DNA of 64,000 bases from Escherichia phage vB_EcoM_G17, in the sequence record MK327931.1; one strand, given 5' to 3'. A program made the translations under genes and the position numbers. Shown in pieces: positions 2,075 through 31,217 of the stretch (position 1 is the stretch's first letter; every line of letters begins with the position of its first letter). The notes beneath the pieces were generated by a model. It made no database searches. It was not told the DNA's origin and was given only the letters and a program-made list of their open reading frames with translations.

Positions 2075-4864
2075 TTATAAATCACGGAAACGATTTGGTG
2101 TGTTTAAGCGGTACATTGAGTATAATCCCAATCCACGCATAATCTCACCTGCCCAGAAACCAAAAAACATACCATTATCAGTACCTTCTCTAACTGCTGG
2201 ACTCCATGAACCATTCATTGGAGAACCTGGACTTACAATAACATAGTTCTTTTGAAGTTCGAGAACTAAGTTATCAGCGAGTGTTGTTAGACCTTCTATT
2301 TTACATCCAGCCAATCCAGCAGCACAAGCCCCAGCTAACCACAACCCACACATATGACCTGTAAAGTCCCAATCTGGACCTTCAACTGTGCCATCTTTAT
2401 TGAAGATTGTTGGTGAACGACCATCATTATCTTTTTGAAATTGAATTAAAAAGTGAATCCAATTCTCACAAAATTCAACAAGATCTGCTGGTGGTTCAAT
2501 TCCTCTCTCTGCGAGTTCTTGCCATGCTCTGGCAGCCCCAAAGAACGCACGTGGTTCATACCCACTCCATGCTTGATCACCCCAATGTAGCATAGTAAAT
2601 GTATCTGGTTCACCATATTTTAAGTTATCCCAGCGGTTCCAAACATATGCTTGTGCACATGGACCAACAGTACCGAATTGTTGAGTAAACCATGTTTGAG
2701 AATCTTTCATAAAGCTTAACATGTTGCCTAAACGTGTGTTATCAACTGGTTGGTCTTTAAAACAATATATCACAGGATATTGATAACCTGGATACGGTAA
2801 ACCACGCCATCCTGAATACTGGTTCGCATACGGGTCAGTGATGTTAGAAAATGGTATTGTTCCTGGTGTGTAATGCAATGAGTTTAACAAATAATCCTTG
2901 ATTACACAATCCCCTAACTGTGCAGTATATGGTGATTCACCTGCAATTGTTATTGAAAATGTCATAGTATAGTCATCACCGTCAGCATCCGTGTATAATT
3001 CTGGAATGTCATTAATACAATACCAATCAATTATTGCAGCAACACCATCTACTGGGGTTGTATCAGGTAAAATAGTAATATCTTCTAGTTCACTATAAAC
3101 TGGTGCATCTGGTCTTGGGTCAGAACTTGGATGATTTGGCTGATACCCAGATAAACGTAATGTATCGGAACTTAGTGTGATTGTAGTCCATTCCCCGTGT
3201 GTTGCAGGAATCATCCACCACCATCTCCAACCATTATCATCTACAATTCTTATATTGTAATCATCTTCATATGAACGATAGGTAAAAGATTTAACTTCAG
3301 ACTTATTTGTTGCTAATAGCCAAAATCCAATAACAGCACCATCATCTTCACCACAAACTAACTGATTAATGGTATCGCGGCGTGTAACTAATATATCAGT
3401 ACTATATATCATTTCGGACGTAGCTGCACCATAAGGAACAACAATTCTACTATCAGCAATTATATAAGGGGAACCATCTGCTTTCTTTTCTCTAACAAAT
3501 GCACTTAAAGGTGTTAATGAATGTGTGATATTTTGGTCTTTACTTTCCGGTAAGCCACAACGATAACGAACAACATCATGGTCATTTTTTGTTTTTGACA
3601 ATTCCAGTACTGGTTTAAATGATAACGGCTTACCATCATCACATACACCACCATAGTCTACAAGTAATTTAGAATCAGCATTGACCCTGAACCAAATAGC
3701 TTGTTGTTCCATAGTACTTTGTGCACTTTGGTCTTGCCTGATAGTAATATATCCTAGAGAATTTCTACCAAACTTAGCAATAGCATCACTAGGATAAAAA
3801 TATTCATAGGAAATACCATCAGTGAATGGTGTGGTTACAATTGTACTTTGTCTGAAAAATTTATCTCTGGAGTCAATATCACCATAAGCATAACACGTTA
3901 GTAGTGAACATTTCCAACCCAAATAATGTTTTCTTTCTTTTGTTATTTTATATAACAAATAAGAAGCATCACTAAACCATAATTCTGCATCTGATGCGTT
4001 ATCAGCAAATTCCAAATCAATTGGAACATGAAGAGGGCGGTTGTGTTGCATTTCATTTCGTTGAATTATCACACCACCATATTCTACTGGTTGACGATTT
4101 GCAAAATTTAATTTATATACACCATTAATTGTTGTATTCTTTAATTGAACAGTTCCTTTTTCCGATTCGTCAAAACCTTCTGCTAAAATATTACCATCCC
4201 AGTCGATTTTTCTACCCATGAAATCGATAATCCAGTCAACATCATATTGTTCACCTGGTGTATCCCAATCAACACTACCATCTGGTAATAATGCTTTTAC
4301 TGACGCATTTATTTGGTTCCATGCTAAAGCACCTTTGAATGCAAATGTTACTTTATCCAAGAACTGACCATAATAAGGTGCACCATGTGGTATTTTACAT
4401 TGTCCATTTGTAAATGTAAATTCTACACCCTTGAAACCACCATGTGTAGGCCATCCATCATCAGCTAAAGGCCAGTTAGCCAATATAGGTTCTTTGGCAT
4501 TAACTATCCAGTTACATTGTAGTGGTGTAGGTGGATCTGGTAATTCACGTCCAGCATAAAAGTACTGATGATATGCGTCCCAATACCACTTTGCCTTATC
4601 TAAAAACATTGGATCATTTGTTGCCAGATACGCATAAATGTATCCTAAAATTAATAGACTTTGACCTTCTGTTGTCCCGTCACCGTTTGGTTGACCTTCC
4701 ATTGCAGAATAGTTAATAAAATGACGGTTGTTCGCCAAAACACCCTGATTATTCACCACATAATGTTGTACTGTTGGATCTATAGTATCACCAGTATTTC
4801 TTTCAATAAACTTATGATGCCCATAAAGAAGTTGTACTATATTATCAATATTATTGTTTAACAT
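2075..4864 (-). CDS. large Trp-rich protein (929 aa), possibly a virion-associated glycan-binding or glycan-degrading protein (tailspike/depolymerase-like)
   Basis: Uninterrupted 2.8 kb ORF adjacent to tail-fibre module; many aromatic/Trp motifs (WYWDAY, DGWPTHGG, HWGDQAWSGYEP) typical of carbohydrate-active domains; function inferred only. Confidence 0.7.
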   Translation of the reverse strand: MLNNNIDNIVQLLYGHHKFIERNTGDTIDPTVQHYVVNNQGVLANNRHFINYSAMEGQPNGDGTTEGQSLLILGYIYAYLATNDPMFLDKAKWYWDAYHQYFYAGRELPDPPTPLQCNWIVNAKEPILANWPLADDGWPTHGGFKGVEFTFTNGQCKIPHGAPYYGQFLDKVTFAFKGALAWNQINASVKALLPDGSVDWDTPGEQYDVDWIIDFMGRKIDWDGNILAEGFDESEKGTVQLKNTTINGVYKLNFANRQPVEYGGVIIQRNEMQHNRPLHVPIDLEFADNASDAELWFSDASYLLYKITKERKHYLGWKCSLLTCYAYGDIDSRDKFFRQSTIVTTPFTDGISYEYFYPSDAIAKFGRNSLGYITIRQDQSAQSTMEQQAIWFRVNADSKLLVDYGGVCDDGKPLSFKPVLELSKTKNDHDVVRYRCGLPESKDQNITHSLTPLSAFVREKKADGSPYIIADSRIVVPYGAATSEMIYSTDILVTRRDTINQLVCGEDDGAVIGFWLLATNKSEVKSFTYRSYEDDYNIRIVDDNGWRWWWMIPATHGEWTTITLSSDTLRLSGYQPNHPSSDPRPDAPVYSELEDITILPDTTPVDGVAAIIDWYCINDIPELYTDADGDDYTMTFSITIAGESPYTAQLGDCVIKDYLLNSLHYTPGTIPFSNITDPYANQYSGWRGLPYPGYQYPVIYCFKDQPVDNTRLGNMLSFMKDSQTWFTQQFGTVGPCAQAYVWNRWDNLKYGEPDTFTMLHWGDQAWSGYEPRAFFGAARAWQELAERGIEPPADLVEFCENWIHFLIQFQKDNDGRSPTIFNKDGTVEGPDWDFTGHMCGLWLAGACAAGLAGCKIEGLTTLADNLVLELQKNYVIVSPGSPMNGSWSPAVREGTDNGMFFGFWAGEIMRGLGLYSMYRLNTPNRFRDL

Positions 4865-17744: not shown

Positions 17745-17841
17745 TACTGCTAATATAACAACTGCCCAAATTAGCAGTAATACATTGGTTGGTGCGGAAA
17801 AAAGCATATATGCAGCAAGTGCACTGCAACCTATGACAAGT

Positions 17842-18078
17842 TTAGCTAGTCTCATCTGGACTCCATGTAATAGTTACTGTGAACGTCCCTTCTTGAAAAC
17901 CAAACTCATCTTGTGGGATTTGTTCAGCTAATGGGTTAAATCTTGAATCGAAGGCTTCATGCACATCTCTCTGAATATCATAGAGACTTTCACCATCGTA
18001 TTCTTTTTTAAAGATTTCATTCTGCATTGATACGTAACGACCCTCGTATTCTGTCTGGATAGCCATCAAATAGTTCAA
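17842..18078 (-). CDS. hypothetical protein (start probably internal)
   Basis: ORF; track start overlaps upstream gene by 62 nt. Confidence 0.4.
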   Translation of the reverse strand: MNYLMAIQTEYEGRYVSMQNEIFKKEYDGESLYDIQRDVHEAFDSRFNPLAEQIPQDEFGFQEGTFTVTITWSPDETS

Positions 18079-18437: not shown

Positions 18438-18656
18438 TTATTTTATAACTCGACAGTAGTACTGAATAATGTAAGGAAATAATGGATTATTCACGTATGT
18501 AGCGAAATTAGCTATTGTAACTTTTTTATAGTACGAATTATGAATTGTTATAAGAGTGTGGGGATCTATTGATTCTCTATTAGAGAGTTCAACATAACGC
18601 CCACACTTCATATAAGCCTTACCATAATAATCGTAAATTATGTCATATTTTTCCAT
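18438..18656 (-). CDS. hypothetical protein
   Basis: 72-aa ORF abutting neighbours. Confidence 0.4.
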   Translation of the reverse strand: MEKYDIIYDYYGKAYMKCGRYVELSNRESIDPHTLITIHNSYYKKVTIANFATYVNNPLFPYIIQYYCRVIK

Positions 18657-19025: not shown

Positions 19026-19250
19026 CTACTTATTATTTGGGTTTGGTATACAGTACACATATACTAGATTACTAAAGTGTTCAGTACTGGAATATTTTGC
19101 TAACTCAGTAATGTGAAAGTTCTTGTCATAAAACCTTCCACTATTGAATGTTGTTATTTGGCAACAATGTATAGGTCTGAAAATATAATAATAAAATATA
19201 TCATTTTCAACTACAACAGTATGGTTTGTATAACGCTCGATTTTCTTCAT
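19026..19250 (-). CDS. hypothetical protein
   Basis: 74-aa ORF. Confidence 0.35.
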   Translation of the reverse strand: MKKIERYTNHTVVVENDIFYYYIFRPIHCCQITTFNSGRFYDKNFHITELAKYSSTEHFSNLVYVYCIPNPNNK

Positions 19251-19615
19251 GTGTGGATAATTTCCTTAACCCCGTATTCCATAATTGCTAATGTGCAAAT
19301 TTCACATGGTTTGGCAGGTACAGGAATTCCATCTTTACTTATCCGTGCAATCAGTAAAGTATGAACATCAGCACGAGCAGCCAGTAAACATGAAATTTCA
19401 GCATGAAGAAACTCACCTTGCGGTCGCCCAGCACGAATGGCGAAACCCTTCTGTACTGGGTGAGTCTGTGTATAAGAATTTGTGCGAGTTGCCAGTACTC
19501 GACCTTTTTTATCCAGTGCACGAGCAATCACACGATACCGCTTGTAGTTCCCTACTTGCTCAATAGGTGGCATCCGGCGTAATTCTTCAACAAGTTTCTC
19601 CAATTTACTATTCAT
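19247..19615 (-). CDS. cytidine/deoxycytidylate-deaminase-fold zinc-dependent deaminase (small)
   Basis: Zinc motifs HAE (FLHAEISCLL) and PCxxC (AKPCEICTLAI) with typical spacing; locally higher GC. Confidence 0.55.
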   Translation of the reverse strand: MNSKLEKLVEELRRMPPIEQVGNYKRYRVIARALDKKGRVLATRTNSYTQTHPVQKGFAIRAGRPQGEFLHAEISCLLAARADVHTLLIARISKDGIPVPAKPCEICTLAIMEYGVKEIIHT

Positions 19616-20238
19616 AAGTCTAAGTCTATACCCTTTTCAAGTGATTTTTCTAGAACCCAAAGTTTACATTCTTCACTCTCCAAATGTATCTTTGCCTCTT
19701 GCTGTTCTCCTATTGTACAAGACTTTATGAATGCACGCAAGGCTTGGATTGTATTTTTTAAATTTTTTATGTCATCGATGATTTTTTCTTTGGTTTCTTC
19801 ATCGATTACACATGAACTCCAACTGTGTCGTTCCTCCCAAACTGTTTTAGCGGGATTATATATTGATTGTGATGCATTGAATGAATGTATTTTATGAAAT
19901 TTATCATCTGCTTCCTGTTGGGTATAATCCCCATATGTGTTCAGAACATTTTTGTATAATTCATCAATGGCCTCTTCATACGTATCACCACCACAATCCA
20001 ATTGATAATCATGTGCTTGTACCCATTCGTCGTCTTGCTCAATATACATTGGTGAAAGAAATTCTACCCAAAATTGAGTCTTTGTATTCAATGCTTTGAA
20101 ATCTTCAATTCGATTTGTCATTGGACACACATCATGAGGTTCAATATCAATCCTAGCTGGAACCATATCTTTGTTTATGAATTTAGGATGACCCAAAATC
20201 CACCAGTACTTTTCCGATGTAGTCATAGTAATCTCCAA
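19612..20238 (-). CDS. hypothetical protein
   Basis: 208-aa ORF, 4-nt overlap with neighbour. Confidence 0.5.
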   Translation of the reverse strand: MEITMTTSEKYWWILGHPKFINKDMVPARIDIEPHDVCPMTNRIEDFKALNTKTQFWVEFLSPMYIEQDDEWVQAHDYQLDCGGDTYEEAIDELYKNVLNTYGDYTQQEADDKFHKIHSFNASQSIYNPAKTVWEERHSWSSCVIDEETKEKIIDDIKNLKNTIQALRAFIKSCTIGEQQEAKIHLESEECKLWVLEKSLEKGIDLDL

Positions 20239-20272
20239 TTAAAAAGTACTGCACACGATGGCAGTACTGATG

Positions 20273-20799: not shown

Positions 20800-21044
20800 T
20801 GTGCATCCTTCGGAACAGTATTAAGACGTTTGCGATTCACAATCTTCCTGCACATGAGGTTAAGATCTTGCCCATGACGCATAGTATGACATGCGTATAG
20901 TGTTCCTTGATGATTTAGTTTTGTTAAACCTTGACGGATGATTTCAGCATCCATCTCATCAACTTTAGGAGCACAACCACAGAGAATAATGGATACAAAT
21001 ATTGTTAATGTAATGAATATATTTTTCATGATATTTTTTCTCAT
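20796..21044 (-). CDS. small lipoprotein
   Basis: Signal peptide with lipobox (IILCGC). Confidence 0.45.
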   Translation of the reverse strand: MRKNIMKNIFITLTIFVSIILCGCAPKVDEMDAEIIRQGLTKLNHQGTLYACHTMRHGQDLNLMCRKIVNRKRLNTVPKDAQ

Positions 21045-21421
21045 TTAGTAAAACACGAATTATTACTGATAAGTTCATCAAGTACTTTTTGTACTTCGAT
21101 AGAATTAATATCAACTTTGTAATAATTATAGTTTTTAACTCTAAAATGTTCTTTTGATATATCAACTTTAAATTCAATAATATCAAGATTACCAATAAAA
21201 TCAGACTTATCAGTTCTTAAATCCAAAATACCTAATTCCGGTTTTTGTGGTTTACATAAAATCAAACCAAATTTATTTTCTTCAAATGCCTGATTAAACA
21301 TATCATAATAATCACTAATAACAAATCTAATATTATCAGTGCTTAACTTTCCTGATTTTCCTTTTTTATAAACAGAAACAATGTTTAGTTCAAAGGTTTT
21401 ACCAAAGCGTGTGATTTTCAT
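21041..21421 (-). CDS. hypothetical protein
   Basis: 126-aa ORF, 4-nt overlaps. Confidence 0.5.
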   Translation of the reverse strand: MKITRFGKTFELNIVSVYKKGKSGKLSTDNIRFVISDYYDMFNQAFEENKFGLILCKPQKPELGILDLRTDKSDFIGNLDIIEFKVDISKEHFRVKNYNYYKVDINSIEVQKVLDELISNNSCFTK

Positions 21422-22389
21422 TTTGGGCTATAACCACTTTTAATTTTAGAAATTACTTTCTTCTCGAAGAACTTACGTGCTTCTTCAATAGTTTCGAATT
21501 CTTCACCATCTGTAGTACTGGTTTTACCAATAGCACCGTACTCAATAATTACTTCACACACTGGAGCATTCAATTCAATATTATAGAATTTGTTTGAAGA
21601 ACCGTGAACATATTCCAAATGTACATTATCAGGAATGTTCTGTACATAATCATAGTTCTTGAAGATAATATCAATCATATTTTCTTCGCCGCGATCAGGA
21701 AATAGTTCAGTATTATTCAGTACTAAACGCTGTGCAGCACGGAACATATCAAAATATTGTTCGCCTTTTTTCAGTTCTTTTGTATCAGAACAGAAATGAC
21801 CATAGTATTCTACATAATCATTCCAAGGATAAATTCCTTCATCAGCAGTTTCAGACACGTAAGTTTCATCTTGTGGAACTTTAAAACCACGAGTTTTTGG
21901 ATGAGAAATTAAGCACAGTGAAATATTATGACCGATATCTGAATCATCAGTAATACTACCACCAACCATATGAACAACATTTTTAATACTTTCAAAATCT
22001 ACATCTTCAATTTCATGATACATTAAATGTTCTTCAATATTACTTACTAGTAATGAATTACCATTTCCGGCATCGAATTCAAAAATGAAAAGTTCTACAC
22101 AATCTTCTTCTTTCATTTCAATAGTATCACTGAGTTTAATATACTCATTTTTTAATTGTTCAATATTTTCATGAGAACCAAAACTATAACGTGAACTGAT
22201 ATAACTACTACCGTCCAACCATCCCATATCCCAAGGTTCTTCTGACATGTATTCTGAGCTATAGAAATCAGTCAAATCATCTCTCTGAGTACAAACCGTA
22301 AGAGAACGAACATTACTAAGACCTTGAACTTCAAGATTCAGTACTGTAGTATTGCCAATTTTTTGTTCAGAAATAATTTTAGTTTTCAT
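21418..22389 (-). CDS. hypothetical protein with WGR-like C-terminal domain
   Basis: C-terminus SSNKFYNIELNAPVCEVIIEYGAIGKTSTTDGEEFETIEEARKFFEKKVISKIKSGY resembles the WGR fold pattern (motif recalled from memory). Confidence 0.5.
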   Translation of the reverse strand: MKTKIISEQKIGNTTVLNLEVQGLSNVRSLTVCTQRDDLTDFYSSEYMSEEPWDMGWLDGSSYISSRYSFGSHENIEQLKNEYIKLSDTIEMKEEDCVELFIFEFDAGNGNSLLVSNIEEHLMYHEIEDVDFESIKNVVHMVGGSITDDSDIGHNISLCLISHPKTRGFKVPQDETYVSETADEGIYPWNDYVEYYGHFCSDTKELKKGEQYFDMFRAAQRLVLNNTELFPDRGEENMIDIIFKNYDYVQNIPDNVHLEYVHGSSNKFYNIELNAPVCEVIIEYGAIGKTSTTDGEEFETIEEARKFFEKKVISKIKSGYSPK

Positions 22390-22602
22390 TTAAAATACCT
22401 ATTGAATTGATTTACGCCATTTGGCTAGTTTAACATTCATGTAAGTAACTCACGTTCCATCTCTTCTGAACTCATATTATCGCATTACAAAGCGAACATG
22501 TCAAGTGCACAAATGCAAAGATCTACAGCTTCACCTTTGACACCATCTTTACCTGCTTCTTTATATGATAACCCATCACGGATGTTCATATTTCATATCA
22601 TC

Positions 22603-30729: not shown

Positions 30730-31217
30730 TTATCAAGACCCTTATCATAAATGCAATTAACAATAATTCCAGCATCTTCCAGTACTTTAATAGCTTCTGG
30801 TGGTGTACGAGGATAATTTTTGAGATAAATTACACGTGAAATCCCACTACCTGCGATCAACTTAGAACAAGTATAACATGGTTGTAGTGTTGTGTAAAGA
30901 GTAGCACCTTGACGTTCAGTAGGAGAACTATAGAGTAAAGCGTTCATTTCAGCATGGATTTCATGAATATTACTCCACTCATGATGTTCATGCTTTGCTT
31001 CATCACTAACCCAGTCTTGAAAACGTCCATCATTGACTAAGTGTTGATTCACATCACAACAATTTGGTTGTTTTGATGGAGTACCATTGTATCCAGTACT
31101 CAATACTCGGTTATTTTTAACAATAACACAACCAACTTTTTGTGAAATACATTTACTTTCCTCAGCAACTACTTCTGCTATCTTCAACCAAGTCGTATGT
31201 TTCATTATAAGCTCCAA
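30726..31217 (-). CDS. cd: dCMP deaminase
   Basis: Zinc motifs HAEMNAL and PCYTCSKLI; T4 cd-like length. Confidence 0.85.
   Translation of the reverse strand: MELIMKHTTWLKIAEVVAEESKCISQKVGCVIVKNNRVLSTGYNGTPSKQPNCCDVNQHLVNDGRFQDWVSDEAKHEHHEWSNIHEIHAEMNALLYSSPTERQGATLYTTLQPCYTCSKLIAGSGISRVIYLKNYPRTPPEAIKVLEDAGIIVNCIYDKGLDK

Follow-up and report, generated by a model that had tools for sequence, protein, structure and literature searches.

Why should a jumbo phage that already encodes a T4-type deoxycytidine monophosphate (dCMP) deaminase carry a second, smaller protein of the same fold? The question is raised by gp468 (WNN14749.1), a gene of 122 codons with an ATG start in the list of open reading frames (ORFs), located at 19247..19615 on the minus strand of the 64,000-nucleotide stretch analysed here, which we call the window. 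This stretch matches Escherichia phage Sharanji (OR545507.1) with 100% identity, its position 18600 falling at record position 290230; Sharanji is a 350-kb Asteriusvirus jumbo phage and kin of 121Q, PBECO4 and RaK2. The gp468 protein is identical to gp490 of 121Q, and it is called a 'hypothetical protein' in Sharanji and a 'dCMP deaminase' in 121Q. From its sequence and conservation, gp468 is a real gene under purifying selection with a complete zinc site, and its product is predicted to be a catalytically competent, minimal zinc-dependent cytosine deaminase. Our preferred reading, held tentatively and at a little less than an even chance, is that it is a minimal, probably non-allosteric deaminase of deoxycytidine nucleotides that would feed the synthesis of deoxyuridine and deoxythymidine monophosphate (dUMP and dTMP) in an AT-rich phage.

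The zinc site is formed by two motifs. H71-A72-E73 (19397..19405, minus strand) provides a zinc-ligand histidine and the catalytic glutamate at the start of a predicted helix spanning residues 72-80, and P103-C104-E-I-C107 (19295..19309, minus strand) provides two cysteine ligands at the start of helix 105-114. The 29 residues that separate HAE from PCEIC fall within the usual range, and, measured between the first residues of H/C-A-E and P-C, the modal offset in 192 family sequences is 32-33 residues. All 156 members of the family alignment have E73, C104 and C107, 155 have H71, 155 have P103 and 151 have A72. The sequence passes the gathering threshold of Pfam PF00383 (29.4 bits against 25, E = 7.8e-7), a family that was matched by all 103 sampled relatives, and it matches PHROG 174 'dCMP deaminase' with E = 6.6e-13. 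An earlier note on this DNA had described a 122-residue ORF with correctly spaced HAE and PCxxC motifs, a proposal that would have fallen had careful alignment revealed an incomplete zinc site; the ORF listing, the sequence, both family matches and the fold model bear it out, and every ligand is retained across the aligned family save for H71 in one member, so that the motif pair is no product of chance.

Beyond the zinc site, the family carries the signature G-x-N-S-Y-x-K-T-H-P-x-Q ... L-H-A-E-I-x-A-L ... R-x4-G-x4-A-K-P-C-x-I-C ... G-I-K-x-V-x-Y-T. N46 (codon at 19478..19480, minus strand) opens the motif N-S-Y-x-K/Q-T-H-P-x-Q, is present in 153 of the 156 members and aligns with the Asn of GYNG/GWNG, the sugar-binding residue of dCMP deaminases (Asn40 in T4). 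The Sharanji protein has Q rather than K at position 50, and its loop reads T-R-T-N-S-Y against G-x-N-S-Y in the family, so that only the Asn of G-[YW]-N-G is retained. The second motif reads H-A-E-I-S-C (H-A-E-I-x-A in the family), which departs from the HAExNA signature. Basic or polar residues are conserved in the 156 members beside the active-site elements (K/Q50, T51, H52, R91, K102, Y/H121 and T122), which suggests a phosphorylated substrate.

The 121Q gene differs from gp468 by 18 synonymous and no non-synonymous changes, and the ratio of non-synonymous to synonymous substitution rates (dN/dS) is about 0.15 against more distant RaK2-like phages. Within 19376..19463 there are 15 differences from 121Q in 88 nucleotides (17%), all synonymous, and the flanks differ at about 0.6%. 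A C-to-T deamination signature was considered for this patch and rejected, as transitions and transversions are mixed, which points to recombination with a diverged allele encoding the same protein. The earlier note had also remarked on locally elevated GC content. The elevation is real (0.431 in the ORF against a window mean of 0.332, within the top 0.13% of 369-nucleotide windows), but it carries no signal of horizontal transfer. The excess lies at codon positions 1 and 2 (0.577 and 0.423), whereas the third-position value (GC3, 0.293) is like that of neighbouring genes, indicating a protein rich in Ala, Arg, Gly and Pro rather than foreign DNA.

The core of canonical deaminases has three layers, alpha/beta/alpha, with a five-stranded sheet in the order 2-1-3-4-5. 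An AlphaFold2 model of gp468 built with 19 homologues has a confident deaminase fold (mean predicted local distance difference test score, pLDDT, 92), but this model, a prediction rather than an experimental structure, has four main strands instead of five. It runs from a helix at residues 3-14 through strands at 28-34 and 40-45, an extra helix at 53-61, the HAE helix at 72-80 and a strand at 86-92 to a short hairpin at about 98-99, the PCxxC helix at 105-114 and a strand at 118-121, and ends at residue 122. Codons 118-122 (E-I-I-H-T) and the stop codon at 19247-19249 together occupy 19247..19264 on the minus strand, and the chain stops directly after beta4 (DSSP strand E118-121), with helix 4 and strand 5 missing. 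A second peculiarity lies between R91 and A101 (19313..19345, minus strand), where the conserved Arg that ends beta3 is followed by a hairpin insert of about 10 residues before PCxxC. This insert, recovered in profile-profile alignment, has no counterpart in canonical dCMP deaminases; R91 is found in 153 and G96 in 130 of the 156 members, and the model places a short strand at residues 98-99.

On solved deaminases the model superposes over only 84-93 residues. Foldseek gave template modelling (TM) scores of at most 0.57, with tetrameric cytidine deaminases (CDAs) and human DCTD on top, and a search of BFVD returned mostly unnamed small viral proteins. Structure prediction, which the earlier note had suggested as a check, therefore yields a confident deaminase fold, but structure comparison alone does not give a substrate.

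The relationship to dCMP deaminases is clearer in profile comparisons. Searching the PDB with the single gp468 sequence gave noise only (E ≥0.23, ribosomal S18 on top). Informative matches required a family profile: one built from 103 members matched the dCMP deaminases of S-TIM5 (4p9c, 4.9e-10), S. mutans (5.7e-7), human (2.6e-6) and T4 (7.4e-6); a Mycoplasma TadA-like protein ranked between these enzymes, and CDAs came far lower (8e-3). Against six canonical phage dCMP deaminases, hhalign gave the 103 members a probability of 98.2% (E = 3.3e-14); the alignment begins at helix 1 and ends with beta4, beyond which about 31 columns of the canonical profile have no counterpart. Relative to the end of gp468, S-TIM5 has 20 extra residues after beta4 and T4 about 40.

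The dCMP deaminases of T4 (Cd, 1VQ2), cyanophage S-TIM5 (4P9C), S. mutans (2HVV) and human (DCTD, 2W4L) share with gp468 the core fold, the His/Cys/Cys site with its Glu, an Asn after beta2, the Ala-Glu and Pro contacts to deoxycytidine and a similar spacing from the Asn to HAE. In the T4 enzyme deoxycytidine is contacted by Val24, Asn40, Ala105, Glu106 and Pro131 (PMC12697855), and the equivalent positions V29, N46, A72, E73 and P103 are kept in the gp468 family. In contrast, the family lacks the stretch of about 30 residues that follows beta4 and forms helix 4 and strand 5, has GxNSY and HAEIxA in place of GYNG and HAExNA, and many of its members, at about 100 residues, have lost helix 1 as well. 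The T4-type second metal site is not present in gp468, which also gave no match to NCBIfam TIGR02571 (ComEB) at E ≤1. Judged by these alignments, gp468 is a divergent, reduced derivative and a phage-restricted offshoot of the dCMP-deaminase lineage.

Loss of C-terminal elements has a precedent among phage enzymes. Homologues of dCMP deaminase with a shortened C terminus act on deoxycytidine triphosphate (dCTP) or promiscuously on deoxycytidine nucleotides, and the Dcd proteins of phages PBS1, DSS3_VP1 and PhiR1-37 and the bi-DCD of PBCV-1 (7FH4) combine the shortening with a wider pocket and activity on dCTP or the diphosphate, dCDP (PMC12697855). Both the model and the hhalign alignment give gp468 a truncated C terminus of this kind, and 7FH4 is among the structural matches of the model. 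PBS1-type Dcd proteins have the normal length and a core of five strands, however, and the shortening of gp468 is far more extreme. Furthermore, Sharanji keeps ThyA and FolA and so does not share the context of PBS1-type Dcd phages, whose DNA contains deoxyuridine (dU-DNA); the tblastn rows that were sampled list no homologue from PhiR1-37. As gp468 lacks GYNG, HAExNA and the C-terminal segment with which canonical enzymes close the pocket, it is probably unregulated, with a wide pocket.

The resident canonical enzyme is gp491 (WNN14772.1; 30726..31217, minus strand; annotated start ATG at 31205, 159 residues), and its assignment as a T4-type dCMP deaminase in the earlier note holds. Its best PDB match is T4 deoxycytidylate deaminase (1vq2, E = 6.6e-35) over the full length, in an alignment that includes the residues matching the T4 second metal site, and it carries GYNG, HAEMNAL and PCYTCSKLI (PF00383, 78 bits). 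Against TIGR02571 it scores 71.5 with a cut-off of 219, which shows how strict that model is. GenBank and the Sharanji paper label gp491 a 'tRNA-specific adenosine deaminase', a name that is probably wrong given the full-length T4 homology and the GYNG, HAEMNAL and PCxxCSK motifs. The protein also matches the PADLOC 'dCTPase' defence model (90 bits) via the shared deaminase domain. No pairwise similarity was found between gp468 and gp491 (BLASTP E = 12), so gp468 is not a recent paralogue or duplicate of that gene, which lies 11 kb away.

The family to which gp468 belongs is large. Exhaustive HMMER searches over 1.84 billion representative proteins gave 4,712 matches at E ≤1e-3 and 1,163 (50%-identity clusters) at E ≤1e-10, of which the best 150 are all 96-166 residues long. 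With a different profile 2,353 proteins were found at E ≤1e-5; the 120 of these that were listed are all single-domain proteins of 101-166 residues with no domain fusions, and many, at about 102 residues, are without even helix 1. The length after PCxxC is bimodal in the 192 family sequences, being either 15-17 residues, ending at beta4 as in gp468, or 23-30 residues, a short tail that is too small for helix 4 and strand 5. A single-sequence model of one long-form member (P0049; pLDDT 41) gives a low-confidence hint of a beta4-beta5 hairpin.

In IMG/VR, at least 580 loci were confirmed by the motif NSYxK[TS]HPxQ / [FY]LHAE, whereas NSYxK[TS]HPxQ occurred at only 10 loci in 185,579 bacterial and archaeal species represented by one genome each. 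All 10 lie on contigs of metagenome-assembled genomes, nine of them 0.7-8 kb long and one 58.5 kb. The disparity indicates an essentially viral family. About 195 of 50,697 isolated-phage records carry a member, including RaK2-like jumbo phages, phiKZ, T4-like cyanophages, Aeromonas and Xanthomonas phages and Cobetia phage Carin-5.

A conserved partner gene was sought at 108 loci in 57 groups, and none occurs in more than 6 groups. Typical neighbours are genes of replication and nucleotide metabolism, encoding primase, DnaB, a CobS/CobT-like ATPase with a VWA protein, a class-I glutamine amidotransferase and an AAA_28 kinase-like protein. The more telling arrangements involve pyrimidine enzymes. 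At three loci (L069, L072 and L132) a 102-residue family member overlaps by 4 nucleotides a 145-residue canonical dCMP deaminase with HAEMNA and PCFECAK motifs, and at two others (L142, 3754..4826; L154, 2754..3826) a 134-residue gene overlaps thyX by 4 nucleotides. The latter encodes a divergent member (75 bits) with the variant NSYKTDPFQ, with a canonical dCMP deaminase encoded 2.7 kb upstream. Canonical deaminases are also found 1-5 kb away at L026/L027, L098, L124/L125 and L170. Over the 50 kb that open the 64.7-kb record of Xanthomonas phage DES1, the small gene is the sole annotated deaminase, and ThyX and ribonucleotide reductase are encoded there too; Carin-5 has a family member together with a dUTPase-fold dCTP deaminase.

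Other features recur at these loci. The tandem at L069 lies at 2719..3461, and the viral contigs of L069, L072 and L132 are rich in tRNA genes. Genes for glutamine amidotransferase, ATP-grasp/amidoligase and gamma-glutamyl-cyclotransferase recur within a few kb of the family member in unrelated phages (L123 15889..22336, from DES1; L127 1520..7071; L083 5229..5843), and those of L127 adjoin genes for an NT5C nucleotidase, an HD hydrolase, NAMPT and NMNAT/Nudix. At L127 (13041..13520 and 17805..17880), and also at L128, ARAGORN detected a tmRNA-like gene and an amber-suppressor-type tRNA (CTA); a CTA tRNA is present at L021 as well.

How would such a protein serve Sharanji? The phage ThyA keeps the Asn that specifies dUMP (LGVPFNISS), and FolA, NrdAB, NrdDG and an NT5C deoxy-pyrimidine 5'-nucleotidase are also encoded. 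Since gp491 already completes the route from dCMP through dUMP to dTMP, gp468 is an addition to it. The links to dCMP deaminase and ThyX genes, the kept deoxycytidine contacts and the basic residues together point to a deoxycytidine-nucleotide substrate and to dUMP/dTMP supply. We propose that gp468 may convert dCMP, dCDP or dCTP to the uracil form, and that its product would add dUMP precursor for the ThyA/FolA pathway of a phage with 33% GC in a host with about 51%. It would escape allosteric control by dCTP and deoxythymidine triphosphate (dTTP), its open pocket could take a di- or triphosphate, and it would complement the regulated T4-type gp491 rather than duplicate its function. The Sharanji record also holds a NudG-like (d)CTP pyrophosphohydrolase (222840..223304; L130) and a PRA-PH/MazG-like pyrophosphohydrolase (141726..142457; L129), either of which could govern how far the cytosine nucleotides that reach both deaminases are phosphorylated.

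Several points weigh against this proposal. Family members co-occur with a canonical dCMP deaminase in Sharanji and with a dUTPase-fold dCTP deaminase in Carin-5, so that a purely redundant dCMP or dCTP activity would not fit readily; co-occurrence with either canonical dUMP-generating enzyme speaks for a distinct substrate form or distinct regulation, one or the other, rather than simple redundancy. Thymidylate synthase is nearby at only 1 of 104 family loci against 6 of 78 canonical loci, in a single-sequence phmmer comparison of limited sensitivity. The four-stranded, C-terminally open active site seen in the model is one that a polynucleotide deaminase would also be expected to need, and the gp468 site may need a partner subunit. 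No assay of any family member was found in the searchable literature.

The open site leads directly to the idea that gp468 deaminates C to U in single-stranded DNA (ssDNA) or RNA, taking a flipped-out base, for example to damage host nucleic acid or edit a specific transcript. The protein lacks the pocket-closing elements that would cover a mononucleotide and is very basic (isoelectric point 9.7), 57 of the 103 sampled members match the MafB19-like toxin deaminase model, and phage enzymes labelled dCMP deaminase are able to act on ssDNA in vitro (bioRxiv 10.1101/2024.12.05.627091). We nevertheless consider it unlikely. The score of gp468 itself against MafB19 (PF14437) is 14.6 bits with a cut-off of 27, canonical dCMP deaminases match that model too, and the defence deaminase model NF041025 gives 11.6 against a cut-off of 400. 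PADLOC has no match for gp468, and the family shows neither fusion to delivery, targeting or nucleic-acid-binding domains nor a conserved partner resembling an immunity gene. A free ssDNA cytosine deaminase would moreover mutate the phage's own replicating DNA, and the operon links are instead to dCMP deaminase and ThyX. Action at the nucleoside level, as a CDA-type cytidine or deoxycytidine deaminase salvaging the products of nucleotidases, would suit a protein of about 100-125 residues, which is the size of tetrameric CDAs; these lead the Foldseek matches (M. tuberculosis CDA, E = 1.4e-4, TM 0.48), the tail of about 11 residues after beta4 in longer members is more like a CDA-type hairpin (by the low-confidence model hint), and the Sharanji NT5C could supply nucleosides. 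Yet tetrameric CDAs (M. tuberculosis, mouse, B. subtilis) and blasticidin-S deaminase have a Cys-Cys-Cys site with a CAE ligand where gp468 has His-Cys-Cys, and they differ further in their ENAxY motif and in a fifth strand within a C-terminal hairpin. TIGR01354 is matched with only 13.8 bits against a cut-off of 113.65, the profiles favour dCMP deaminases over CDAs (4.9e-10 against 8e-3), the Lys, His and Arg residues conserved near the active site speak for a phosphate, and E. coli already has Cdd. We give this explanation, too, a small chance.

A non-canonical cytosine nucleotide, such as the 5-methyl or 5-hydroxymethyl form of dCMP or dCTP or another modified pyrimidine, acted on for pool cleaning or thymidine-type modification, is a distinctly improbable substrate. 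Phage dCMP-deaminase-like enzymes that prefer 5-methylcytosine (5mC) or 5-hydroxymethylcytosine do exist and are polyphyletic (bioRxiv 10.1101/2024.12.05.627091), a homologue with 52% identity is found in Carin-5, whose DNA carries hypermodified T, and Sharanji has cytosine and adenine DNA methyltransferases (PMC11895373). The Sharanji ThyA, however, is of the type specific for dUMP and not dCMP, post-replicative methylation yields modified mononucleotide pools only if DNA is degraded, and the family shows no linkage to a thymidylate-synthase homologue, whereas 70% of the 5mC-selective enzymes do. Methylation-selective phage deaminases such as mSCD-B5 belong to PF00383/PF14437 and have true substrates that differ from their 'dCMP deaminase' label, but mSCD-B5 has 154 residues, an ordinary fold and a link to a dCMP-methylating thymidylate-synthase homologue, none of which applies to gp468. 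Even less probable is a role in serving the phage tRNAs by deamination of their adenosine (A34) or cytidine. Joint Genome Institute (JGI) pipelines name several members 'TadA', and the HAE helix has the TadA-like sequence HAEIxAL in place of HAExNA. Apart from tRNA-Arg(ACG), A34 is unusual in bacteria, and Sharanji has an unusual tRNA-Ser with anticodon ACT, so called by both the record and ARAGORN; it is one of seven phage tRNAs and lies outside the window (L131 23471..23562, record 95470..95561). It is the only A34 tRNA of the phage, whose tRNA-Arg is TCT and not ACG, host tRNA-Arg(ACG) is already served by host TadA, and by the genetic code inosine-34 in a Ser-ACU tRNA would read the Arg codon AGA too. 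Against TadA/ADAT2, gp468 lacks helix 4, strand 5 and the C-terminal helices that grip the anticodon arm, its spacing from Asn to HAE is much longer, and it does not match NCBIfam TadA (NF008113). In 6 of 54 family groups a tRNA gene is found no further than 1.5 kb away, but most fetched loci (about 6 kb of flank per side) contain none, and nearby tRNA genes are found in 12 of 54 family groups against 20 of 54 groups of canonical dCMP deaminase (11 within 1.5 kb); linkage to tRNA genes was rejected as unspecific, since the canonical control is equal or higher. It is likewise very unlikely that gp468 is a subunit of a mixed oligomer in which it alters the regulation or specificity of the canonical dCMP deaminase. 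The missing beta5 exposes a sheet edge in the model, the two genes are translationally coupled at L069, L072 and L132, and several unrelated lineages carry both. A purely regulatory subunit, though, would have no need of the catalytic residues, every one of which is strictly conserved. Moreover, no canonical enzyme is annotated in 50 kb of DES1 or lies within 6 kb at 99 of 104 family loci, the small gene is reported as the only 'dCMP deaminase' of Carin-5, and 11 kb separate the two genes in Sharanji.

The earlier note had suggested that the second enzyme may act on another substrate, among them tRNA, a modified nucleotide, or nucleic-acid bases as in editing and toxin deaminases. The general point stands in part: gp468 is additional to gp491 and not a duplicate, and co-occurrence in unrelated phages fits a distinct role. 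The particular options fared less well. The toxin or editing idea finds no support in the MafB19 score, the PADLOC result or the absence of fusions; a modified substrate in Sharanji is weakened by the dUMP-type ThyA; and tRNA editing is not supported, given the missing tRNA-binding C-terminal part, the lack of a phage tRNA-Arg(ACG) and a proximity to tRNA genes no higher than in the control.

Downstream of nrdD and nrdG, the Sharanji gene is one of a long run of small genes on the minus strand; a promoter scan around gp468 gave background levels. The upstream gene gp469 (19612..20238, minus strand; 208 residues) and the downstream gene gp467 (19026..19250, minus strand; 74 residues) have no Pfam match. 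Both junctions are ATGA overlaps, of the gp469 stop with the gp468 start and of the gp468 stop with the gp467 start, by which gp468 is probably co-translated with its two neighbours. Among family loci gp469 is kept beside the deaminase gene in RaK2-like phages only (cluster 0, 6 groups). Conservation of gp467 is limited to close relatives, and the idea that it supplies the missing C-terminal strand was dropped for this reason and for its lack of a family match. A terminator-like hairpin with an 8-bp stem followed by TTTTT (20245..20268, minus strand) falls in the 34 nucleotides separating gp470 from gp469, immediately ahead of the three translationally coupled genes gp469-gp468-gp467; such sites are commoner in the gp468 stretch than in shuffled sequence (6 against 1.6). 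Further away, window positions 20981..22589 hold about 1.6 kb in Sharanji in place of 222 bp in 121Q, comprising gp473-gp475 and including a 'WGR domain protein'. This segment adjoins a tract of 22-28% GC (about 20900-21500), the lowest of the profiled 17-22 kb stretch.

Because gp468 is annotated in relatives and falls inside PF00383 and PHROG 174, it does not represent a new kind of system; in Sharanji it is a well-conserved accessory gene of nucleotide metabolism and no exotic system. What appears to be new, as far as the searchable literature shows, is a separate, virus-restricted, four-stranded family of about 100-125 residues, for we found no study there that treats these proteins as such. 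Thousands of phage genes named 'dCMP deaminase', 'TadA' or 'hypothetical' belong to this distinct, truncated family, and phage members of the superfamily often differ from their label, as do the dCTP deaminases for dU-DNA and the 5mC-selective ssDNA deaminases. There is an outside chance that these phage-only proteins of about 100-122 residues, as the smallest natural zinc deaminases, have an open-site specificity beyond that of the canonical enzymes, either a new pool-level activity that is neither dCMP nor dCTP deamination or one that acts directly on single-stranded nucleic acid. The engineered 'smallest' ssDNA deaminases (mini-Sdd) have 130-160 residues, so that at about 100 residues the family offers an attractive minimal deaminase scaffold, and if single-stranded nucleic acid did prove to be a substrate it would provide a new class of very compact base-editing scaffolds. 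For the phages themselves, the repeated occurrence of these genes next to a canonical dCMP deaminase gene probably points to a step or point of control, so far unrecognised, in the way AT-rich phages reshape the pyrimidine pool.

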